Below, piece after piece: positions 19,796 to 30,631 of a stretch of 64,000 bases of DNA; the first letter of the stretch is position 1; each line of letters opens with the position of its first letter. The DNA lies in contig DASWRM010000010.1 of the NCBI GenBank assembly GCA_036403155.1, forward strand, positions 33,618 to 97,617. The letters run 5' to 3'. Both the position numbers and the translations under genes were made by a program. This DNA is from Gaiellales bacterium (GTDB lineage Bacteria > Actinomycetota > Thermoleophilia > Gaiellales > JAICJC01). Under the pieces are notes generated by a model, which worked only from the letters and a program-made list of their open reading frames with translations, was not told where the DNA came from and ran no database searches.

Positions 19796-20473
19796 TCAGG
19801 CCGGCGGTGTCGCTTCGCCGCCCGCGGTGACGGGCACGGGCTCGGCTCCGGATGCGGACGCCAGCTCGTCGATCCGGTGCTGCGTCTGGATCGGCAGCTG
19901 GACGAACTGGCAGCCGACCCGCCAGCGGCCGAAGGCCATACGGGACGCCTGCATCGCGACCAGCTCACCGAGCACGCGGATCCCGTGCACGGAGGTGTCG
20001 ATCTCGAGCCGGTCGCCGACCTCGAGCGGCGTCTCGAGGCTCACGCCGACTCCGCTGGACGAGATGTCGAGCAGCCGTCCGAGCAGCCGCGTGCCGGGCG
20101 GCATTGAGGACGCGCTCACCGTTCGCAGCGTCGCGGTGCAGTCGGTGGCCACGCGGTCCTTCAGGCGGTAGGGCTTGCGCCGGAGGACTTCGTCCACGTG
20201 CAGCATGGCGCCGCTCTCCAGCCCGCCCAGGAAGTACACCTCCCTGATCGTGCAGCCGACCGAGTACCCGCCGCGCTCCTCCTTCTCGATGGGGATCGTG
20301 AGCTTGACGCCCTTCTCGGCGTCGAGTGAGGAAAGTGAGCCGTACAGCTCGCCGTCGCGCACCTCGAGCAGCGACAGGCGGAGCTGACCACCGTCATCGC
20401 GCACGCAGCTGACGTCGTGGGGCAGCTCGGGAAGCACGCCGAGGGCGATCGTGAGCCAGTCGGTCTGGGACAT
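19796..20473 (-). CDS. PilZ-domain protein (c-di-GMP receptor-like), paralog 1
   Basis: Start re-set to ATG 20473 (MSQTDWLTIALGVLPELPHDV). The PilZ motifs are RRKPYR (RxxxR) and DISSSG (DxSxxG). An N-terminal domain of about 100 aa is shared with paralog 2. Confidence 0.8.
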   Translation of the reverse strand: MSQTDWLTIALGVLPELPHDVSCVRDDGGQLRLSLLEVRDGELYGSLSSLDAEKGVKLTIPIEKEERGGYSVGCTIREVYFLGGLESGAMLHVDEVLRRKPYRLKDRVATDCTATLRTVSASSMPPGTRLLGRLLDISSSGVGVSLETPLEVGDRLEIDTSVHGIRVLGELVAMQASRMAFGRWRVGCQFVQLPIQTQHRIDELASASGAEPVPVTAGGEATPPA

Positions 20474-20563
20474 CCTGTGCAGAGGTATCGGCACCGGGCC
20501 GTGTCGCTTGATGCCGTCGAAACCGCTCCAGTTTCGCCGCGCCGCCGCCGATTATCCCGACGT

Positions 20564-21229
20564 ATGACGGATCAGACCCCAGCTGAGCTCGCGGAGCTGA
20601 GCGTTTCCGTGCTGCCCGCGCTGCCGCACGGGGTGACATCCCCGCTTCCGGACGACCCGGCCCGCACCGAGCCGGTCGTCCTCGAGGCACTGGAAGGTGA
20701 GCTGTTCGTCGCGCGCTGGCAGTCCGTCCAGCCGGATATCGGCACCGAGCGCGAGCTCCGCCTGACCGGTCAGCACGCGGTCTACCTGCTCACCGTCGAG
20801 GTGGCCGCCCACGGGCCGGACTCCGGCTCTCGCCTGCTTCGTGTCACGAATCTTCGGCGCAGGCGTCAGCGGCGCGCGGCTCCGAGGGCGGAGGTGCGCG
20901 ACCTGGTCCTGGTTACGACCGACCGCGACGTCGATGCGGAGCTGGTCGACGTCTCCTCAGGCGGCGTCGCGTTCATCCTCGACCGGCCGCTCCAGGTGGA
21001 AGAGGTGATCCGCGCGGTCCTGAACGTCCACGGCCGCGTCATGCCGACCGAGGCGTGCGTCAAGCAGGTCACGAGCGTTGCCGACGGCTACCGGATCGGC
21101 TGCGTCTTTACCGAGATCTCGGATGCCCATCGTGCCGAGCTCGGCAGGCACGCCGCGCTCAACCCGGTCGACCGCCGCACGCAGACCGGTGACCGCAGCC
21201 TGCGCGACCGGCTGTTCCTCTCGGACTAG
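20564..21229 (+). CDS. PilZ-domain protein (c-di-GMP receptor-like), paralog 2
   Basis: Start at ATG 20564 (MTDQTPAELAELSVSVLPALPHGV). The PilZ motifs are RRRRQRR (RxxxR) and DVSSGG (DxSxxG). Confidence 0.8.
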   Translation: MTDQTPAELAELSVSVLPALPHGVTSPLPDDPARTEPVVLEALEGELFVARWQSVQPDIGTERELRLTGQHAVYLLTVEVAAHGPDSGSRLLRVTNLRRRRQRRAAPRAEVRDLVLVTTDRDVDAELVDVSSGGVAFILDRPLQVEEVIRAVLNVHGRVMPTEACVKQVTSVADGYRIGCVFTEISDAHRAELGRHAALNPVDRRTQTGDRSLRDRLFLSD

Positions 21230-21297: not shown

Positions 21298-22497
21298 GTG
21301 CGCAACGTCATCCTCACCACCGCCGACGGCCGCCGGTTCCTGTTCGCGCAGCTGATGGACTCCCTGGGCGCCGGCCTCTCGTCCGTCGTCCTGCCGTGGC
21401 TGGTGCTGGACGCGGGAGGATCGGGAGCCGAGGCCGGGGCGGCGTTCCTCGTCAGCACCGTCCCCTACGTCCTGCTTGGACTGCCCGCCGGTGATGTCGG
21501 CGACAGGCGGCCGCGCCGGCGGGTGATGGAGGTCGGCGTCGCCTGCCAGCTGGCGGCCGCCCTCGTCATCCCCCTGACGGTGGTGGCCGGCGTGCAGGCG
21601 CATGAGCTGCCGCTGGTCCTCATCTACGCGGCGGGCTTCGGTGTCACCGCCGGCCGCGTATTCGTCGACGCTGCGGCGTTCGGGGCCATCGCCCGGCTGG
21701 TCGGCGAGGGTCACTTCGTGGAGGGTCAGGCCGCGCTGTCGTTCGTCTGGTCGCTCGGATTTCTGATCGGGCCGGCCATCGGGGGAGCGCTGATCGGCCT
21801 GGTCGGAGCCGACGACGCGCTGTGGGTGCAGGCGGCCGGATTCCTGCTCGCGCTCGTGCTGATCGCCTCCATGAGGGTCGACCTGGGCCCCGGCGATGAG
21901 CGGCCCACCGGCCGCACCGGCCTGGTCTCCGGCTTGATGCTGGTTGCCCGCCACCCGATGCTTCGGGTGCTGACGGCGGTCGGGATGGCGTGGAACCTGA
22001 CCGTCAACATGATCTATGCGCTGCTGGTCGTGTTCGCGCGGGCCGAGCTCGGCGCCGGCGGGCCGGAGACCGGGTGGATGCTTGCGGTGGGCGGCGGCGC
22101 GGGGCTGCTCGGCGGGCTGACCGCCCCCGCAATCCATCGGCGAATCGGCGCTGCCAACGCGCTGCGCGGTGGTCTGCTTGCCAGCGCGGCGGGCTCCGTG
22201 CTGCTCGCGCTCTCGACGAACGTCTGGGAGGGGACGGTCGCGTTCGCCGCGGTGGAGGCGGCCGGTCTGCTGTTCGTGACGCTGCTGATCGGCGAGCGCC
22301 AGACGGTGGCGCGGCCTCACGAACAGGCGCGCGTCGGCATCACCGGGCGCATGGCCGCCCTGCTCGCATCGAGCCTCGGCGCCCTGGCGGCAAGCGCGCT
22401 GGTTCTCCATATGCGGCCGTCGGCCGTGTTCGCCATCTCGGCGGGCGGGACGGTGCTGGTCGCGCTAGCGGGGCAGCGGCTGCTCGGCCGCATCTGA
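21298..22497 (+). CDS. MFS transporter
   Basis: A 12-TM-like profile with a typical MFS N-terminus (FLFAQLMDSLGAGLSSVVLPWLVL). Confidence 0.8.
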   Translation: MRNVILTTADGRRFLFAQLMDSLGAGLSSVVLPWLVLDAGGSGAEAGAAFLVSTVPYVLLGLPAGDVGDRRPRRRVMEVGVACQLAAALVIPLTVVAGVQAHELPLVLIYAAGFGVTAGRVFVDAAAFGAIARLVGEGHFVEGQAALSFVWSLGFLIGPAIGGALIGLVGADDALWVQAAGFLLALVLIASMRVDLGPGDERPTGRTGLVSGLMLVARHPMLRVLTAVGMAWNLTVNMIYALLVVFARAELGAGGPETGWMLAVGGGAGLLGGLTAPAIHRRIGAANALRGGLLASAAGSVLLALSTNVWEGTVAFAAVEAAGLLFVTLLIGERQTVARPHEQARVGITGRMAALLASSLGALAASALVLHMRPSAVFAISAGGTVLVALAGQRLLGRI

Positions 22498-22659
22498 GGG
22501 CGCACGATCCTTCGACCGCTGGGCGTGCCACTCGGCCAGTTCCTCGTCCGAGAGGTGCGCGGGCGGCAGGCGCCTGACATAGAGGGCGAAGCGGGTGAGG
22601 AACGCCAGGCCGATCAGCGGCGCGAGGATGTGCGGCAGGTGGGTGAGGATCAGGCGCAT
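22465..22659 (-). CDS. Small single-TM protein (64 aa), unknown function
   Basis: Third-position GC is very high throughout. One hydrophobic helix is followed by a charged tail. Its 3' end overlaps the convergent MFS gene by 33 nt. Confidence 0.4.
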   Translation of the reverse strand: MRLILTHLPHILAPLIGLAFLTRFALYVRRLPPAHLSDEELAEWHAQRSKDRAPSDAAEQPLPR

Positions 22660-22815: not shown

Positions 22816-23547
22816 TTGTCTGCATTCAAGGTTGGGATCGTCTCGGTGATCGTGGGCGCGATCGGAACGGTCGCCATCCTCGTCACTCCCTCATGGTTCC
22901 CCGTCGCGGCCGCCACCCAGGCCGACCGTCAGGACGCGCTCTACCTGGCCCTGATGATCATGTCCGCGTTCATCATGGCGATCGTCACGACGTTCCTGGT
23001 GTACTCGGTCTGGCGCTTCCGCGCGCGGCCGGGCGACGAGGACCGGGACGGCCCACCGCTGCACGGCAACACGACGCTCGAGATCGTCTGGACGGTGGTC
23101 CCGACGATCCTGGTGGTCGCCTTCGCCATCGCGGGCGGCGTCGTGCTCGTGCGCAACGAGAAGACCTACAGCAACGAGCTGGACGTGCACGTCATCGGCC
23201 AGCAGTTCGCGTGGACGTTCTCGTACCCGAACGGCGTCAAGAGCACCGAGCTCGTGCTGGAGAAGGACCGCGCGACCCGGTTCGACATCTACTCCAAGCT
23301 GCACGACGTCATCCACTCGTTCTACGTGCCGCAGTTCCGGGTCAAGGCGGACGCGGTTCCCGGCCAGGTCAACCACACGTACGCGACGCCGACCCGCGTC
23401 GGCACGTACTCGTTGATCTGCACCGAGCTGTGCGGCCCCGGGCACTCGCTGATGCGGGCGCCGGTACGGGTGCTGTCGCACAACGACTTCGAGCAGTGGC
23501 TCTCGCAGCAGCAGAGCCAGCAGTCATCGACCCAGGGAGGGGCGTAG
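22816..23547 (+). CDS. ctaC: Cytochrome c oxidase subunit II (CuA), operon 1
   Basis: Start re-set to TTG 22816, preceded by GAGGGAGA. It has two N-terminal TM helices and the CuA site CTELCGPGHSLM. There is no CxxCH haem-c motif. Confidence 0.85.
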   Translation: MSAFKVGIVSVIVGAIGTVAILVTPSWFPVAAATQADRQDALYLALMIMSAFIMAIVTTFLVYSVWRFRARPGDEDRDGPPLHGNTTLEIVWTVVPTILVVAFAIAGGVVLVRNEKTYSNELDVHVIGQQFAWTFSYPNGVKSTELVLEKDRATRFDIYSKLHDVIHSFYVPQFRVKADAVPGQVNHTYATPTRVGTYSLICTELCGPGHSLMRAPVRVLSHNDFEQWLSQQQSQQSSTQGGA

Positions 23548-23550
23548 CCA

Positions 23551-25989
23551 ATGGCCGTCGCGCACGGAGCTGAACTGCCGGGCCACGGTCACGGTCACGG
23601 GGCGGCCGAGCGGCCGCCGCACAGCGTCTGGCTGCGGGGCAGCTGGGTGCGCGCGGTGTGGGTGTCGATGCTGTTCGCGGGGATCGCGTGCGGCATGGTG
23701 GCGCTGATCCGCCACCTGCTCGGCTTCACCGCGGTGAGCGGGCTGTCGGCCCACGAGGTGCTGCTGACGTTCGGCCTGACGTTCTGGGCGATCGGCTTCA
23801 CGGTCGGCATCGGCTGCTTCGACTACTGGTGGGGCTACCTGATCGGCAGCCATACCTGGCAGCAGGAGGATCACTCCGCCCACGGTGCGTACTCGTGGCG
23901 CGACTACTTCAAGGTGAACACCGACCACAAGGTGATCGGCGTCCAGTACCTGGTGCTGACGTTCATCTTCTTCCTGATCGGCGGCGCGCTGGCCGAGGGC
24001 GTGCGCGCCGAACTGGCGACGCCCGGCACGCAGGTGGTGTCGCCCGGCACGTACAACGGCCTGTTCTCCGCGCACGCGACGCTGATGATCTTCCTGTTCA
24101 TCATCCCGTCCTTCGCGGGCCTTGCGAACTTCGTCGTCCCGCTGATGCTGGGAGCGCAGGACATGGCCTTCCCGCGGCTGAACGCCCTGTCGTTCTGGCT
24201 GCTGCTGCCGGCGGGCCTGATCTTCCTGGCGTCGTTCCTTGTCGGCCCGTTCGACGCCGGGTGGACGAACTACGCACCGCTCTCCGAGCGCACGACAATC
24301 GGCGACACCTTCTTCACCATCGGCGTGCAGTTCGCCGGCGCCTCATCGATCGCCACGGCCGTGAACTTCCTGGTCACGATCGTCACGATGCGCGCGCCGG
24401 GCATGAGCTTCTGGCGGATGCCCTTGCTCGTGTGGGCGAACCTGGCAACGTCCTCGCTGGTCGTGCTCGGCACGCCGTTCATCGCCGGGTCGCAATTCAT
24501 GGTGCTCTACGACCGGGTGATGCACACGCACTTCTTCGACCCGGGAGAGGGCGGCAACGTCGTCCTCTACCAGCACATCTTCTGGTTCTACTCGCACCCG
24601 GCCGTCTACATCATGATGCTGCCCGGGTTCGGGATCATCAGCGAGGTGATCTCGATCCATTCGCGCAAGCCGATCTTCGGCTACCGCCTGATCGCGTTCT
24701 CGACCGTCGCGATCGGCGTGCTCGGATTCACCGTGTGGGCGCACCACATGTTCGTGTCCGGCATGGCGCCGTGGCTGCGCATCCCGATGATGGCCACCAC
24801 GATGCTGATCGCCGTGCCGACCGGAATCAAGATCTTCTCGTGGGTTGCGACGCTGTGGGACGGCGTCATCCACCTGACGACCGCCATGCTGTTCGCGCTC
24901 GGGTTCATCTTCACGTTCGTCATCGGCGGCCTGTCCGGCGTGTTCCTGGCGGTGATTCCGGTGGACGTGAACGTGTCGGATACGTACTTCGTCGTGGCGC
25001 ACATCCACTACGTGCTGTTCGGCGGCTCGGTGTTCACGATCTACGCCGGCATCTACCACTGGTTCCCGAAGATGACGGGGCGGATGTACGACGAGCGCCT
25101 GGGCCGGCTGCACTTCTGGCTGACCTTCGTCGCCTTCAACGCCACGTTCATGCCGATGCACTGGCTGGGGCTGCAGGGCATGCCGCGCCGGGTTGCGGAC
25201 TACGACCCGCGCTTCGGCGACCTCAACTTCATCATCTCCATCTTCGCGTTCATCCTCGGCGCCTCGACGCTGGTCTTCCTCTACAACATCGTCCACAGCT
25301 GGGCGCGCGGCGCGATCGCGCCGGCGAACCCCTGGCGGGCGCTGTCGCTGGAATGGCAGGTCAGCTCGCCGCCGCCGATCTTCAACTTCGACGAGCCGCC
25401 GCAGGTCGTGGGCGGGCCGTACGAGTTCGGCGTGCCGGGGGCGCGTCACGCGATCGTCACGGTGCACGAGCCGGATCCTCAGTTCGTGGGGACTGCCGGC
25501 GCCACCGCCGTGGCGACGGCCCCGGCGCCCGAGTCGCGCGAGGCCCTGCGCGGTGCGATGAAGCACATCCTGGTGGTGGCGAACCAGACGGTGGCCGGCG
25601 ATGCGCTGATCGACGCCGTGCGTGACCGTGCCGGGGGCCAGCCGGTGCGCGTGACCGTGATCTGCCCGCAGAACGACCCGAGCGGCGAGTGGGTGGTGGA
25701 TGACCGGGAGGTGGCCGAGGCCACGCGGGCGCGGCTCGATGCGACGCTTCAGCGGCTGCGCTCGGCGGGCATCGAGGCCACGGGCGGCGTCGTCGACCGC
25801 GATCCGTACACCGCCGTGATGGACGAGGTCGAGAGCGATCCGCCCGCAGAGATCATCATCTCGACGCTTCCGCAGACCCGATCCGGCTGGCTGCGGCGTG
25901 ACCTGGTCGAGCGGGTTCGGCAGGATGCCAAGATCCCCGTCCAGCACGTGGTGGTCGACGTGCGGGCGAAGCCGACGGCGGGCGCATGA
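23551..25989 (+). CDS. ctaD: Haem-copper oxidase subunit I, A2-type, with an N-terminal 2-TM extension and a C-terminal soluble USP-like domain (812 aa)
   Basis: The COX1 core runs from TDHKVIG to PWRALSLEWQVSSPPPIFNF. The motif is FYSHPAVY (YSHPxV), not GHPEV. About 100 extra N-terminal residues include GHGHGHG and two hydrophobic helices. About 190 extra C-terminal residues include MKHILVVANQTVAGDALIDAV...VTVICPQ... Confidence 0.9.
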   Translation: MAVAHGAELPGHGHGHGAAERPPHSVWLRGSWVRAVWVSMLFAGIACGMVALIRHLLGFTAVSGLSAHEVLLTFGLTFWAIGFTVGIGCFDYWWGYLIGSHTWQQEDHSAHGAYSWRDYFKVNTDHKVIGVQYLVLTFIFFLIGGALAEGVRAELATPGTQVVSPGTYNGLFSAHATLMIFLFIIPSFAGLANFVVPLMLGAQDMAFPRLNALSFWLLLPAGLIFLASFLVGPFDAGWTNYAPLSERTTIGDTFFTIGVQFAGASSIATAVNFLVTIVTMRAPGMSFWRMPLLVWANLATSSLVVLGTPFIAGSQFMVLYDRVMHTHFFDPGEGGNVVLYQHIFWFYSHPAVYIMMLPGFGIISEVISIHSRKPIFGYRLIAFSTVAIGVLGFTVWAHHMFVSGMAPWLRIPMMATTMLIAVPTGIKIFSWVATLWDGVIHLTTAMLFALGFIFTFVIGGLSGVFLAVIPVDVNVSDTYFVVAHIHYVLFGGSVFTIYAGIYHWFPKMTGRMYDERLGRLHFWLTFVAFNATFMPMHWLGLQGMPRRVADYDPRFGDLNFIISIFAFILGASTLVFLYNIVHSWARGAIAPANPWRALSLEWQVSSPPPIFNFDEPPQVVGGPYEFGVPGARHAIVTVHEPDPQFVGTAGATAVATAPAPESREALRGAMKHILVVANQTVAGDALIDAVRDRAGGQPVRVTVICPQNDPSGEWVVDDREVAEATRARLDATLQRLRSAGIEATGGVVDRDPYTAVMDEVESDPPAEIIISTLPQTRSGWLRRDLVERVRQDAKIPVQHVVVDVRAKPTAGA

Positions 25990-26606
25990 CGTCGATCGCC
26001 GCAACCCACGGCACGCCCGCGCCCGCACACGGCGACGGGCACGCCGTCTCCGCGTACCACGAGAACCTGCTGCGATCTCCGGTGTTCCTCGGCATGGTGA
26101 TGTTCATCGGGTCGGAGATCATGCTGTTCGGCTCGTTCTTCACCGCCTTCTTCTACGTGCGGTTCAGCCATGGCCACTACCCGTTCGGCGACTTCGAGAT
26201 CCCGAAGGCGACGACCGGCGTCAACACCGCGATCCTGGTTGCCTCCTCGTTCACGATGCACTGGGCGCTGGTGTCGGCCAAGCGAGGCCGTCGCCTGGGG
26301 CTCGTCCTCGGGCTCGGGATGACGCTCGTGATGGGACTCACCTTCCTCGGGCTGCAGATGCGCGAGTACCACGACCTCGGGTTCGTGCCGTCGGACGGCG
26401 CGTTCCCGACCACCTTCTTCGCGCTGACTGGCCTGCACGGCATGCACGTGTTTGTCGGCGCGACGCTGCTGACGATCGCCTTCGTCCGGTCGATCCGCGG
26501 CCATTACTCGCCGGACGCCCATCTCGGGCTCGAGGTGACCGGCCTCTACTGGCACTTCGTCGACGTGGTGTGGATCTTCCTCTACACCGTCGTCTACCTG
26601 CTCTGA
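25986..26606 (+). CDS. ctaE: Cytochrome c oxidase subunit III (5-TM form)
   Basis: COX3 signature FIGSEIMLFGSFFTAFFYVRF ... GLHGMHVFVGATLL ... YWHFVDVVWIFLY. The start forms an ATGA overlap with subunit I. Confidence 0.9.
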   Translation: MTSIAATHGTPAPAHGDGHAVSAYHENLLRSPVFLGMVMFIGSEIMLFGSFFTAFFYVRFSHGHYPFGDFEIPKATTGVNTAILVASSFTMHWALVSAKRGRRLGLVLGLGMTLVMGLTFLGLQMREYHDLGFVPSDGAFPTTFFALTGLHGMHVFVGATLLTIAFVRSIRGHYSPDAHLGLEVTGLYWHFVDVVWIFLYTVVYLL

Positions 26607-27360: not shown

Positions 27361-28263
27361 CTAAAAGGTGATCCGGTCGGCGCCGATTGCGGCGAACATC
27401 AGCGCCAGGTAGGCGAGAGAGTAGAGGAACACGGCGCGCGCGTTCGCCCGGCTGGTATCGCGCACCAGCCGCGCCGCAAGCAGGAGAAACCATGCGCCCA
27501 GCACGACGCTCGACACGAGGTACACCGCGCCGAACGTCTGCGAGAGAAACGGGAGCAGGGACAACCCGACGAGCAGCACCGTGTAGAGCAGGATCTGCCG
27601 AGCCGTCTCGTCGTCCCCGCGCACGGCCGGCAGCATGGGCACGCCGGCCGCCGCGTAGTCGTCCTTCGTCAGGATCGCGAGCGCCCAGAAGTGCGGCGGC
27701 GTCCAGTAGAACACCAGGGCGAACATGAACACGGCCGGCAGGCCGAGATCGCCCGTCACGGCCGCCCACCCGACGAGGGGCGGTACGGCGCCGGCGGCGC
27801 CGCCGATGACGATGTTCTGCACGGTCCGGCGCTTCAGCCACCAGGTGTAGACGACCACGTAGAAGAGCGCGCCGGCCAGCGCCAGCGCGGCCGTCAGCGC
27901 GTTGACGTACAGCAGGAGCACCGCAACCGACGCCACGATCAGCCCGATCCCGAAGCCGGCGCCGGCCTCGGGCGACACCCGCCCGGACGCCACCGGTCGC
28001 GCCGCGGTGCGACGCATCCGCGCGTCGATGTCGCGGTCGAGCACGTGGTTGAGCGCGCTGGCGCCGCCGGACGACAGGCCCAGGCCGAACAGCGTGGCGA
28101 GCGCCAGGCCCATCCGCGGCAGTCCGTCCGTCGCAAAGGCCATCGCACCGTACGCCGTGATCAGGATCAGCAGCATGATCCGCGGCTTCGTCAGCGTCGC
28201 GTAGTCCGCGACGGCCGTCCGCAGGGACGGGCGCAGCTGCTCGGGTGCGGTCGCCATGCTCAT
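27361..28263 (-). CDS. ctaB: Protohaem IX farnesyltransferase (haem O synthase)
   Basis: Start re-set to ATG 28263 (MSMATAPEQLRP). UbiA-family motifs are present (ALNHVLDRDIDARMRRTAARP and YWTPPHFWALA). Confidence 0.9.
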   Translation of the reverse strand: MSMATAPEQLRPSLRTAVADYATLTKPRIMLLILITAYGAMAFATDGLPRMGLALATLFGLGLSSGGASALNHVLDRDIDARMRRTAARPVASGRVSPEAGAGFGIGLIVASVAVLLLYVNALTAALALAGALFYVVVYTWWLKRRTVQNIVIGGAAGAVPPLVGWAAVTGDLGLPAVFMFALVFYWTPPHFWALAILTKDDYAAAGVPMLPAVRGDDETARQILLYTVLLVGLSLLPFLSQTFGAVYLVSSVVLGAWFLLLAARLVRDTSRANARAVFLYSLAYLALMFAAIGADRITF

Positions 28264-28271
28264 CGGCGGCC

Positions 28272-29900
28272 CTAGTCTCCCGACACCGCGAGCACCTCCG
28301 CCTCGCTGCGCAGGTCTGCGAGCGGCCGCTCGCTGCGCACCGGGGGCAGGGCGTCGAAGTTGTGCGCCGGCGGGGGCGACGTCGTGTACCACTCGAGCGT
28401 GTTTGCCTCCCACGGGTCGTTGCCGGCGATCCGGCCGGTGCGCAGTGACGTCAGGCAGTTCCACGCGACCATCAGCACGCCGACGGAGAGGACGACCGAG
28501 CCGAGCGTGGCGATCTGGTTCATCAGCTCCCAGCCGGGATGCGCCTGGTAGCTCGCTATCCGCCGTGGCATGCCCGAGAGGCCGAGCGCGTGCATCGGGA
28601 AGAAGGTCAGGTTGAAGCCGATGAACAGCACCCAGAAGCTGCGGATCGCAAGGCCGCGGTCGAGCATGCGGCCCGTCATCTTCGGATACCAGTAGTGGAG
28701 GCCGCCCAGCACCGCGAAGACGGGGACGGAGCCCATCACGTAGTGGAAGTGGGCGATCACGAAGTAGCTGTCGGTGACCTGCAGGTCGATCGGGAACACG
28801 GCCAGGAAGATGCCCGAGAGCCCGCCGATCATGAACAGCAGGATGAAGCCGATCGCGAACAGCATGGGCGGCTCGTAGCGGATCCGCCCCATCCACATGG
28901 TGCCGATCCAGTTGAAGATCTTGACGCCCGTCGGCACCGCGATCGCCAGCGATCCCAGCATGAACCACGAGTCGACCGCCGTCGGGAAGCCGGTCGCGAA
29001 CATGTGGTGGCCCCAGACCAGGAAGCCGAGGAAGCTGATGGCGGCGACCGAGTAGACCAGCGCGCGGTACCCGAACACGGGCTTGCGCGAGAAGACGGGC
29101 ACGATCTCGGAGATCATGCCGAATCCCGGCAGTGCGACGATGTACACCTCCGGGTGCCCGAAGAACCAGAACAGGTGCTGGTAGAGGATCGGGCTGCCGG
29201 ACGCCGTGAAGAAGTTCGTGCCGTAGTTGCGGTCGAGCAGGAGCATCGTCAGCGCGCCCGAGAGCACCGGCAGGGCGCCCAGGATCATGATCGAGTAGAA
29301 GTCGATGCACCAGGTGAACAGCGGCATCCGCGTGAGCCGCATGCCGGGCGCGCGCATGTTGTGGATCGTGCAGATGAAGTTGATCGCGCCGAGGATGGAC
29401 GACAGCGACAGGATGTGCAGCCCGACGATCCAGAAGTCCATGCCGTGGCCGGCGGACTGGATCGAGAGCGGCGGGTACCCCGTCCAGCCCGTGTCCGGGG
29501 CGCTGCCGAACGCGAAGCTGGAATACATCGTCAGCCCGCCGAACAGCAGCAGCCAGAACGATGCCGCGTTCAGCTTCGGGAAGGCCATGTCCCGCGCGCC
29601 GATCTGCAGCGGCACGATGTAGTTGCCGAACGCGGCCATCACGGGCACGACGAAGAGGAACACCATGGTGGTGCCGTGCATGGTGAAGATCTGGTCGTAG
29701 CGCTCGGGCGAGACGACGGTGCCGTTCGCGCTCTCCAGCTGCAGGCGGATGACGAGAGCCATCAGCCCGCCGGTGAGGAAGAAGAACAGCGTGACCAGCA
29801 GGTACATGACGCCGATGCGCTTGTGGTCGACCGTGGTCAGCCAGGACCGCAGACCGGTGCGGCCGGGCAGCGAGGCGCCGGGGGCGGCGGCGGTCGCCAT
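28272..29900 (-). CDS. ctaD: Haem-copper oxidase subunit I, A1-type (542 aa)
   Basis: Start re-set to ATG 29900 (MATAAAPGASLPGRTGLRSWLTTVDHKRIG). The canonical FFGHPEVY motif is at 29142..29159. Confidence 0.95.
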   Translation of the reverse strand: MATAAAPGASLPGRTGLRSWLTTVDHKRIGVMYLLVTLFFFLTGGLMALVIRLQLESANGTVVSPERYDQIFTMHGTTMVFLFVVPVMAAFGNYIVPLQIGARDMAFPKLNAASFWLLLFGGLTMYSSFAFGSAPDTGWTGYPPLSIQSAGHGMDFWIVGLHILSLSSILGAINFICTIHNMRAPGMRLTRMPLFTWCIDFYSIMILGALPVLSGALTMLLLDRNYGTNFFTASGSPILYQHLFWFFGHPEVYIVALPGFGMISEIVPVFSRKPVFGYRALVYSVAAISFLGFLVWGHHMFATGFPTAVDSWFMLGSLAIAVPTGVKIFNWIGTMWMGRIRYEPPMLFAIGFILLFMIGGLSGIFLAVFPIDLQVTDSYFVIAHFHYVMGSVPVFAVLGGLHYWYPKMTGRMLDRGLAIRSFWVLFIGFNLTFFPMHALGLSGMPRRIASYQAHPGWELMNQIATLGSVVLSVGVLMVAWNCLTSLRTGRIAGNDPWEANTLEWYTTSPPPAHNFDALPPVRSERPLADLRSEAEVLAVSGD

Positions 29901-30631
29901 CAGGAGATCGCCTTCTGTGACATGTAGCTGCTGAACTCGTCCTTCGAGACCACCCGCACGGTGATCGTCATCGTGGCGTGGCCGGGGCCGCAGAACTCGG
30001 CGCACTGTCCCTGGTACTTGCCGGTCGTCCGCGCGTCGAACCACGTATGCGTGGTCTTGTTGGGGAACACATCCTGCTTCTGTCCCAGCGGCTCGACCCA
30101 GAAGTCGTGGATGACGTCCTTGGAGCGCATGTTCAGGTGGACGGGCGTGTCGACCGGGACAACGAGGGTGTTCGGGCCCGCCGGATGCTTGCCGTTCGGA
30201 TAGGTGAACGTCCAGCCGTACTGCTGCGCCAGCACCTTCACCTCCATCGCCCCCTTCGGCACGTCGTTCACGTCCGGAAGCTTGTAGAAGGTGAACGCCG
30301 ACAGGCCGACGAGGATCAGGATCGGGACGATCGTCCAGCCGATCTCGAGCTGCGTCGAGCCGCGCACCTGCGGGGGTGGCGGATACGTCCGCCCCGGCCG
30401 CTCGCGGAATCGGATCGCCGAGTAGACCAGCCAGCCGCCGACGAGCACGAAGATGGTGACCGTCACCCCGAGCACCGCCCGGTACGTGCCGTCGATGGCC
30501 TCGCTGTTCGGTGACACCGGCTCGTTGAACGTCGCGGTTCCGGCGAACGCCGGCGCGGCGGCCACGAGCATCGCCACTGTCCCGACCAGGGCGGCGGCGA
30601 AGAACCAGCGTCGTCGGTGGGGTCGGGTCAC
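29900..30631 (-). CDS. ctaC: Cytochrome c oxidase subunit II (CuA), operon 2
   Basis: Signal/TM N-terminus and the CuA site CAEFCGPGHATM. GTG start at 30631. Confidence 0.9.
   Translation of the reverse strand: MTRPHRRRWFFAAALVGTVAMLVAAAPAFAGTATFNEPVSPNSEAIDGTYRAVLGVTVTIFVLVGGWLVYSAIRFRERPGRTYPPPPQVRGSTQLEIGWTIVPILILVGLSAFTFYKLPDVNDVPKGAMEVKVLAQQYGWTFTYPNGKHPAGPNTLVVPVDTPVHLNMRSKDVIHDFWVEPLGQKQDVFPNKTTHTWFDARTTGKYQGQCAEFCGPGHATMTITVRVVSKDEFSSYMSQKAIS

Follow-up and report, generated by a model that had tools for sequence, protein, structure and literature searches.

Why would the catalytic subunit of a terminal oxidase carry a soluble domain resembling a universal stress protein (USP) at its C-terminus? 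The question is raised by a gene for cytochrome c oxidase subunit I (coxI) in a stretch of 64,000 nucleotides from a Gaiellales bacterium (contig DASWRM010000010.1 of assembly GCA_036403155.1, positions 33,618 to 97,617; hereafter, the window), whose product of 812 amino acids has an additional N-terminal segment and an additional C-terminal domain (Table 1). Our analysis revealed an A2-type cytochrome c oxidase specific to Thermoleophilia, of which this protein forms the catalytic subunit and in which ordinary A2 oxidase chemistry is combined with a previously undescribed, lineage-wide accessory module. The C-terminal domain is very probably a dedicated oxidase-associated module of the USP fold, and we give a probability of roughly 0.5 to the joint statement that it serves this oxidase as a dedicated accessory module in the cytoplasm and is both ligand-responsive and regulatory.

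An A2-type oxidase subunit I with a USP-fold domain

The central part of the protein was matched by Pfam PF00115 (COX1; residues 129-568, E 2.9e-155) and by TIGR02891 (CtaD/CoxA; residues 123-619, 688.4 bits against a cut-off of 670.75), and Foldseek comparison of this core with solved COX1 chains gave template modelling (TM) scores of 0.8-0.9. Residue invariance in the core, as in the tail and the N-terminal extension described below, was scored over 78 aligned clade members. The six histidine ligands (H175, H349, H398, H399, H484 and H486) and the cross-linked tyrosine, Y353, are invariant, and the D-channel aspartate D204 (GAQDMAFPR), N193, N211 and the K-channel lysine K427 (PTGIKIFSW) are invariant or nearly so. 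By homology and established knowledge, we assign the individual histidines to heme a, heme a3 and CuB. The sequence of helix VI is WFYSHPAVY; F346-Y347-S348-H349-P350 are invariant in the clade, and the glutamate of the GHPEV motif is absent. Because Y347-S348 is an A2 hallmark, the A2-type assignment made in the original prediction is correct; helix VI of the minus-strand paralog in the same window, FGHPEVY, has the A1 form. Equally, the T124-D125-H126-K127-V-I-G motif starts at residue 124 as claimed and is invariant among the 78 homologs, and that of the paralog lies at about residue 23-24 when counted from an internal methionine. The CuA motif CTELCGPGHSLM in the coxII product, which matches Pfam COX2, identifies the enzyme as a cytochrome c oxidase rather than a quinol oxidase, and in some relatives subunit II also carries a cytochrome c domain (the caa3 arrangement).

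Following the end of helix XII (…EWQVSSPPPIFNF) there is a tail, then an Ala/Pro linker, and then the domain, which starts at M670 (nucleotide 25558), where it had been placed originally; the C-terminal 143 residues run to the end of the protein. AlphaFold2 modelled the domain alone with a predicted local distance difference test score (pLDDT) of 85.5 and a predicted TM score of 0.83, and with a pLDDT of about 90 within the full-length model. Five strands (2-8, 30-37, 74-79, 98-103 and 128-132) and four helices form the alpha/beta fold characteristic of USPs. In Foldseek the best match was PDB entry 2IEL (E 2e-8, TM 0.69-0.74, 27% identity), followed by dozens of USPs; nearly all of the 39 PDB matches at E<=0.001 were USPs, USP structures gave TM scores of 0.5-0.69, and the ATP- or AMP-bound USPs 3TNJ, 2GM3, 3HGM, 1MJH and 3CIS were among these neighbours. 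A search of the PDB with the family profile (hmmsearch) likewise returned 2IEL as its sole match (E 3.5e-10, over the whole domain). In terms of fold, the domain is thus USP-like, in agreement with the original prediction.

Apart from a weak match to Usp, the domain has no Pfam or NCBIfam match at E<=1, and no oxidase chain occurs among the top 50 listed Foldseek matches. The domain therefore matches no known oxidase subunit, and the regulatory interpretation of the original prediction is not contradicted on this point. We also rejected the identification of the domain or of the N-terminal extension as a known accessory subunit or assembly factor (subunit IV/CtaF, Cox11/CtaG, Sco, Surf1), as neither sequence nor fold gave a match.

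Conservation within the domain was assessed in a 75-sequence alignment and is given in domain numbering. Residues N9, T11, P37, N39, P41, D80, P83, P105, R108-S109-G110-W111 and R113 are invariant, and C36, Q38, D82, S102, T103 and L112 are conserved in at least 90% of the sequences. The invariant residues are all located just after the C-terminal ends of beta strands: N9 and T11 after strand 1, C36-P37-Q38-N39-x-P41 after strand 2, D80-x-D82-P83 after strand 3 and S102-T103-x-P105-x2-R108-S109-G110-W111-L112-R113 after strand 4. The motif (S/A)T(L/F)P-x3-S-x-W is present in 73 of the 75 family members.

The protein behind 2IEL, Thermus thermophilus TT0030, is thus the sole solved structure reached by sequence profile as well as the best structural match. 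It shares with the domain the hallmark of the family, (S/A)T(L/F)P…S(R/G)W(L/V)..D, together with T11, P37, P83, A86 and H130, and T103, P105, S109 and W111 are invariant across the oxidase-linked and TT0030 branches. In contrast, TT0030 is a stand-alone hypothetical protein of 138 amino acids that lacks N9, Q38-N39, D80-x-D82, R108 and R113 of the oxidase-linked branch. Its orthologs do not lie beside oxidase genes: we considered and rejected an oxidase link for the Thermus homologs, one of which is adjacent to lptF/G (locus L084) and two of which have unrelated contexts (L085 and L086), so that the linkage is specific to the Thermoleophilia branch. The domain is a divergent, TT0030-like branch of the USP/HUP fold with invariant motifs of its own, and its position in an oxidase operon provides the first functional context for the orphan TT0030/2IEL family, solved in 2006.

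Selection was compared by segment as the ratio of nonsynonymous to synonymous substitution rates (dN/dS), calculated pairwise against 11 orthologs. The 48 residues of the tail (593-640, FNFDEPPQVVGGPYEFGVPGARHA) gave values of 0.05-0.21 and are at least as constrained as the catalytic core (0.08-0.28); P594, P607, P617, Q618-G621, P623, Y624, G627 and G630-A634 are invariant or nearly so. This high constraint, combined with a pLDDT below 50 and an unplaced position in the monomer model, suggests a segment that folds only against a partner, and we infer that the tail is a candidate docking element for the domain or for other subunits. The linker (641-669), with dN/dS of 0.33-0.90, 32-62% identity among orthologs and low pLDDT, covers the site at which the coxI stop and the start of the domain gene overlap or abut in split relatives.

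At the other end of the protein, an extension of about 100 residues with two hydrophobic helices was found as originally described. AlphaFold2, run with the 78-sequence alignment, placed helices at 32-56 and 65-87 with pLDDT >90. The extension is present in all 110 clade members with a complete N-terminus, independently of C-terminal architecture and thus of whether the domain is fused. Its invariant residues are R34, R54, G88, D91, W93, D107, H108, H111 and G112, and its conserved features include W32..R34-A35, R54, GIGCFDYWWGYLIG and a cytoplasmic loop, EDHSxHGAYSWRDYF. dN/dS was 0.41-0.63 for the extension and 0.2-0.7 for the His/Gly tail (residues 1-30). The GHGHGHG tract pointed out in the original prediction is present (residues 10-17, PGHGHGHG); it is not a conserved motif but a compositional feature, recurring in homologs without fixed sequence (HGHGH, HAHGH, HEHH), and it falls within residues 1-18, which are predicted to be disordered (pLDDT <50 in the full-length model). 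Subunit I of A-type oxidases has both termini in the cytoplasm. Since the chain starts there and two helices have been added, the His-rich tail stays cytoplasmic.

No homolog of the extension was found in Pfam, NCBIfam or the PDB, and its interpretation as a fused CtaF/subunit IV or as the missing helices 1-2 of COX3, lacking sequence support from Pfam or the PDB, was set aside as speculation. Solved COX1 chains align over a core of about 500-550 residues of the 812-residue model (TM about 0.58 at query length), so that none appears to cover the extension or the C-terminal domain. Supernumerary transmembrane helices in subunit I have a precedent in CyoB of Escherichia coli cytochrome bo3, which has extra helices TM0 and TM13-14 and is represented among the Foldseek matches of the core (7CUB, 7N9Z). 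In contrast to CyoB, the N-terminal helices found here are without a Pfam or PDB homolog and are accompanied by the His-rich tail and the EDHSxHG loop.

Fused and separate forms of the module in Thermoleophilia

The fusion is genuine. NCBI lists an identical protein of 812 amino acids under accession HEY0387119.1 (annotated as 'cytochrome c oxidase subunit I [Gaiellales bacterium]' and encoded on a 174-kb contig of a metagenome-assembled genome), and its 90% cluster contains 41 members with NCBI, JGI and ENA as sources. A whole-protein search recovered about 25 clusters of 795-820 amino acids with the same single-domain architecture and 71-89% identity. In a genome scan using one genome per species, the same fusion was detected at 13 species-level loci; about 142 nucleotides separate the COX1 match from the domain match in 11 of them, compared with 139 and 145 nucleotides in the other two, and coxIII follows immediately in all 13. 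In addition, dN/dS of the C-terminal domain is 0.15-0.42, low in comparison with the linker, indicating that the domain is kept by selection and that only the linker drifts.

The fusion is not an isolated feature of this gene: the domain is embedded in the oxidase operon across Thermoleophilia, mostly as a separate tandem gene. The survey of its spread covered the 80 best genome loci from among at least 562 genome hits, or 83 loci when three contigs looked up earlier are included. In 78 of the 80 loci, coxII is followed by N-extended coxI, by one or two copies of the domain, separate or fused, and then by coxIII; coxII upstream of N-extended coxI and coxIII directly after the domain are therefore conserved positions. 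All 80 loci are labelled as Thermoleophilia or as unclassified Actinomycetota, except for two metagenome-assembled genomes that are probably mis-binned. Among the 83 loci, 64 have a separate tandem gene, 14 a fused single domain (L062 being a doubtful call), one a fused tandem, and four fall into other categories (truncated or frameshifted contigs). The protein database also holds many independent fused-tandem clusters of about 920 amino acids, some on megabase contigs.

The closest non-fused relatives of the domain (about 55% identity) are proteins of about 290 amino acids with two tandem copies. One locus (L003) encodes coxII with a cytochrome c domain, coxI of 636 amino acids, a tandem protein of 295 amino acids whose gene overlaps coxI by 4 nucleotides, and coxIII, and the gene order is the same in L002 and L001. 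Similarly, members of the COX1 clade that are free of the domain (645-655 amino acids) are followed by a gene for 277-282 amino acids without a Pfam match and then by coxIII; this gene starts within a base of the coxI stop, and in L087 it translates into two tandem copies of the domain. Overall, coxI and the tandem gene of split operons overlap by 1-4 nucleotides or lie 1 nucleotide apart. The fused domain matches positions 4-143 of the tandem profile and is the ortholog of domain 1 of the tandem protein, and no second copy was found elsewhere in the window. Thus, in the Gaiellales lineage only the first domain remains, in fused form, and domain 2 has been lost; the internal methionine at 25558 (MKHILVVANQT…) is the relic start codon of a once-separate gene. 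The fused and split pattern, the strict gene order and the abutting or overlapping frames are strong evidence that the module is a dedicated component of this oxidase, present once per subunit I. An abundant and mostly uncultured class of soil Actinomycetota (Gaiellales, Thermoleophilaceae, Solirubrobacterales) carries this module fused to or directly after subunit I. The N-terminal extension of two helices, itself new, and the ultra-conserved tail in the cytoplasm accompany it. Public annotation describes these proteins as 'cytochrome c oxidase subunit I' or 'hypothetical protein'.

An apparent triple fusion of subunit I, USP-like domain and subunit III (P0533, 1019 amino acids) was rejected as an assembly error, as its domain region is out of frame. 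In one long-read metagenome assembly (L001, 6086-8004) coxI is broken into three pieces by frameshifts. Such frameshifts create false architectures, and fusion surveys based on length consequently need frame checks.

Many of the A2 operons of Thermoleophilia have a fourth gene after coxIII (Table 1), encoding about 215 amino acids. Its product starts with a hydrophobic stretch of 1-2 helices and contains one paralogous copy of the domain with its own motif, SPALNxxLRHWTSDED. The window lacks a gene of this kind.

Possible roles of the module

Given that both ends of subunit I are cytoplasmic, the domain lies under the cytoplasmic face of the oxidase. It is tethered there by the flexible linker and is probably docked via the ultra-conserved tail after helix XII. 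The invariant residues coincide with the ligand crevice of the USP fold, on the basis of which we propose non-canonical binding of a small phosphate-containing or related ligand. Occupancy of the crevice by such a ligand, probably phosphate-bearing, may tune activity, proton uptake or stability of the oxidase to the energy, redox or stress state of the cell. That the domain is a ligand-responsive regulator, taken by itself, is a tentative proposal to which we give somewhat less than even odds. If metabolite sensing is confirmed, the module would offer a tractable route to understanding how respiration is matched to energy and stress in slow-growing, dormancy-prone soil bacteria.

Known systems provide partial precedents for this proposal. 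The best functional analogy comes from two Foldseek neighbours of the domain, the USP domain of KdpD (7JI4), which binds c-di-AMP, and TeaD of TeaABC (3HGM), which are cytoplasmic USP-fold modules fused to or co-operonic with membrane machines; here, in contrast, the module is attached to a terminal oxidase through its catalytic subunit and has a different binding motif. Known fusions of subunit I join it to subunit III or involve cytochrome c domains. The caa3 oxidase of Thermus thermophilus (2YEV) has a similar A2-type core (Foldseek E 4e-30) and a C-terminal subunit I fusion, although its fused partner is the membrane subunit III, whereas in our case the partner is a soluble USP-like domain and subunit III is separate, with five helices. 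Bacterial A-type oxidases are usually described as having three or four membrane subunits, and soluble cytoplasmic partners of the catalytic subunit are not textbook components. In mitochondrial cytochrome c oxidase, matrix-side nuclear-encoded subunits (e.g., subunit IV, with its proposed ATP/ADP allosteric sites) adapt activity to the energy state; their likeness to the domain is one of analogy only, without homology and with a different fold. USPs are not known as subunits or fusion partners of heme-copper oxidases, and our literature search, which included a 2022 review of oxidase assembly proteins, found no report of a USP-like component of such an enzyme.

The wider family of the domain is also relevant. 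A profile search of 1.8 billion representatives placed the domain at the N-terminus of proteins of 138-480 amino acids. The counts from this search (6903, 2610 and 319) were not used as a family size, since the A4 profile carried 134 columns of the COX1 C-terminus and COX1 matches inflated them. Among ten long examples, six have AhpD-like CMD domains (P0376, P0409, P0378, P0394, P0411 and P0414), three have HEAT repeats (P0453, P0375 and P0370) and one has tandem bona fide USP domains (P0383). Combination with such unrelated partners indicates a portable module, as is typical of sensor or adaptor domains. No Pfam or NCBIfam model exists for the TT0030-like family.

Several observations weigh against a ligand-responsive, regulatory module. 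The ATP motif of USPs, G-x2-G-x9-G-(S/T), is absent from all 75 family members (alignment A2) and from all 24 sequences of a second alignment (A4), and the sequence relation to bona fide USPs is marginal by both Pfam score and profile alignment (below). Because the tail and linker have a pLDDT below 50, docking near the proton-uptake sites is conjecture. In other bacteria an assembly factor takes the slot between coxI and coxIII, an example being the coxBA-PA0107-coIII operon of Pseudomonas aeruginosa (PMC5436846). The invariant residues of the domain could equally form a protein-protein interface. Finally, domain 2 has been lost in Gaiellales, so that either one half of the tandem module is not essential or its place is taken by dimerisation in trans.

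These points lead to the best-surviving alternative, a structural or assembly module without ligand sensing, which may act as a permanent scaffold that stabilises the cytoplasmic face, a link between subunits I and III, a means of forming dimers or supercomplexes via the usual USP dimer interface, or a built-in chaperone for maturation of subunit I. Its invariant residues would constitute the interface with another protein. Consistent with this, the gene is always found between coxI and coxIII, abutting or overlapping coxI; the nucleotide motif is missing; the ultra-conserved tail resembles a binding partner; and the same slot in Pseudomonas holds an assembly gene, PA0107, a Cox11/CtaG-type factor. 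Tandem USPs such as Rv2623 (3CIS) form intramolecular pseudo-dimers, and a single fused domain could by extension dimerise two oxidases. However, the invariant polar residues N9, T11, N39, D80, R108, S109 and R113, with Q38 and D82 conserved in at least 90%, are positioned at the classical ligand crevice, and residues of this kind are found more typically where small molecules bind than at an interface. Furthermore, the joining of the family to CMD, HEAT and USP partners points to a generic sensing or adaptor role, and permanent fusion to the client is rare among assembly factors that act transiently. We consider a purely structural or assembly role possible, though on the unlikely side.

Returning to ligand-dependent regulation, its most specific form is that of a ligand-gated allosteric regulator built into the catalytic subunit of a proton-pumping oxidase, or bound to it in stoichiometric amounts. 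The cytoplasmic metabolite sensed would be a phosphate-bearing signal such as a nucleotide or a cyclic dinucleotide. The module would sit beside the entrances of the D- and K-channels, in company with the EDHSxHG loop and the His-rich tail, and in starved or dormant cells the bound ligand would slow both the uptake of protons and the reduction of oxygen. At this level of detail the proposal is speculative and must be rated as unlikely; if true, it would be the bacterial equivalent of the control by ATP/ADP that has been proposed for mitochondrial cytochrome c oxidase, independently invented in soil actinobacteria.

A canonical ATP-binding USP of the MJ0577 or Rv2623 type, coupling the oxidase to ATP/ADP, is essentially what the original prediction had in mind in calling the domain nucleotide-binding-like. 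The domain does resemble the USPs of PF00582 (MJ0577, 1MJH; tandem Rv2623, 3CIS; UspE, 5CB0) in its five-stranded alpha/beta fold and in its occurrence in single and tandem forms, its structural neighbours include the ATP- and AMP-bound entries given above, and Pfam Usp matched 25 of the 75 family members weakly at E<=0.01 (best 1e-9). Nevertheless, the score of the domain itself (17.6 bits in isolation, 12.8 in the whole protein) does not reach the gathering score of 24; comparison with a bona fide USP domain by hhalign gave a probability of 4%, with STLPQTRSGW aligned to ATHGSSRLGR; and the loop equivalent to the ATP motif reads STLPQTRSGWLRRD, with the family-specific S-T-x-P-x2-R-S-G-W-L-R in its place. 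The closest solved relative, 2IEL, is annotated merely as hypothetical. The description as nucleotide-binding-like is hence not upheld, and we regard a canonical ATP-binding USP as very improbable.

The weakest explanation, that a frameshift or lost stop in a metagenome-assembled genome falsely joined coxI to a USP-like gene, could appeal to the separate overlapping or abutting genes of most relatives and to the frameshifts in long-read assemblies of the operon (L001, P0533), but is effectively refuted by the identical deposit and the independent sources of its cluster, by the recurrence of the fusion across protein clusters and species-level genomes with a nearly constant gap, by a lineage-specific loss of domain 2 with coxIII following in ATGA overlap, and by selection that differs sensibly between linker and domain.

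Gene order in the window and neighbouring genes

Within the window, the A2 operon consists of coxII, the fusion gene and a short five-helix coxIII. The ATG of the fusion gene is located 3 nucleotides past the coxII stop, with a GGAGG-like sequence about 10 nucleotides upstream, and its stop overlaps the coxIII start in the sequence ATGA (25986-25989). The coxII start codon is uncertain, the maximal reading frame beginning at 22525.

Table 1. Coordinates of the A2 oxidase operon, the segments of the fusion protein and neighbouring genes in the window, and of selected genes in related loci
Feature	Position	Strand	Evidence or remarks
Window
PilZ-domain open reading frame	19796-20494	-	overlapping, divergent pair
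PilZ-domain open reading frame	20417-21229	+	overlapping, divergent pair
MFS transporter	21298-22497	+	just upstream of the A2 operon
coxII, A2 operon	22819..23547	+	Pfam COX2_TM and COX2; CuA site CTELCGPGHSLM; without cytochrome c domain
Fusion gene (N-extended coxI and domain)	23551..25989	+	uninterrupted open reading frame, 812 amino acids
Residues 1-30, His/Gly-rich N-terminal tail (PGHGHGHG)	23551..23640	+	cytoplasmic, low complexity, predicted disordered
Residues 31-122, two extra transmembrane helices and cytoplasmic loop	23641..23916	+	AlphaFold2; motifs GIGCFDYWWGYLIG, EDHSxHGAYSWRDYF
Residues 123-592, 12-helix heme-copper oxidase subunit I core, A2 type	23917..25326	+	PF00115, TIGR02891
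Residues 593-640, clade-specific tail after helix XII (…EWQVSSPPPIFNFDEPPQVVGGPYEFGVPGARHAIV)	25327..25470	+	dN/dS, invariant residues
Residues 641-669, variable Ala/Pro-rich linker ending in a short helix	25471..25557	+	
Residues 670-805, cytoplasmic USP-like (TT0030-like) alpha/beta domain, 136 residues	25558..25965	+	AlphaFold2, Foldseek, profiles
coxIII, A2 operon	25986..26606	+	short five-helix form, 206 amino acids; Pfam COX3 profile positions 65-255 of 258
Two-helix open reading frame, 75 amino acids	27018-27245	-	matches COX3 residues 3-62
Heme O synthase ctaB/UbiA, A1 cluster	27361-28296	-	
coxI, A1 cluster (paralog, GHPEVY)	28272-30044	-	
coxII, A1 cluster	29900-30631	-	
Related loci
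Fourth gene after coxIII, L087	8433-9089		
Fourth gene after coxIII, L002	1619-2263		
Fourth gene after coxIII, L088	8410-9063		
Fourth gene after coxIII, L017, L035, L053		+	
Fourth gene after coxIII, L026, L041, L068, L074		-	
Multi-GAF/PAS sensor protein, L087	923-3817		upstream of the A2 operon
Multi-GAF/PAS sensor protein, L088	1-3656		upstream of the A2 operon
Cytochrome c, STAS-domain and TPR proteins, L087	9756-10118		downstream of the A2 operon
Cytochrome c, STAS-domain and TPR proteins, L088	10602-10964		downstream of the A2 operon

Convergent with the A2 operon is a second oxidase cluster (27361-30631, minus strand), which is of the A1 type and has no coxIII of its own, no N-terminal extension and no USP-like domain. 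In 11 of the 13 fused loci (L004-L012, L014 and L016), as in the window, the A2 operon is followed at a distance of about 3 kb by an A1-type coxI-coxII pair. Downstream of ctaB, the product of the 75-amino-acid reading frame matches helices 1-2 of many solved COX3 chains (E 0.011-0.03). As coxIII of the A2 operon lacks exactly these two helices, subunit III appears, judging from sequence, to be split into two genes on opposite strands.

Gaiellaceae relatives encode a very large multi-GAF/PAS sensor protein upstream of the A2 operon, and cytochrome c, a STAS-domain protein and a TPR protein downstream of it; these may be regulatory neighbours. In the window, the A2 operon is preceded by the MFS transporter and by the two PilZ-domain reading frames, whose products are candidate receptors for cyclic di-GMP.

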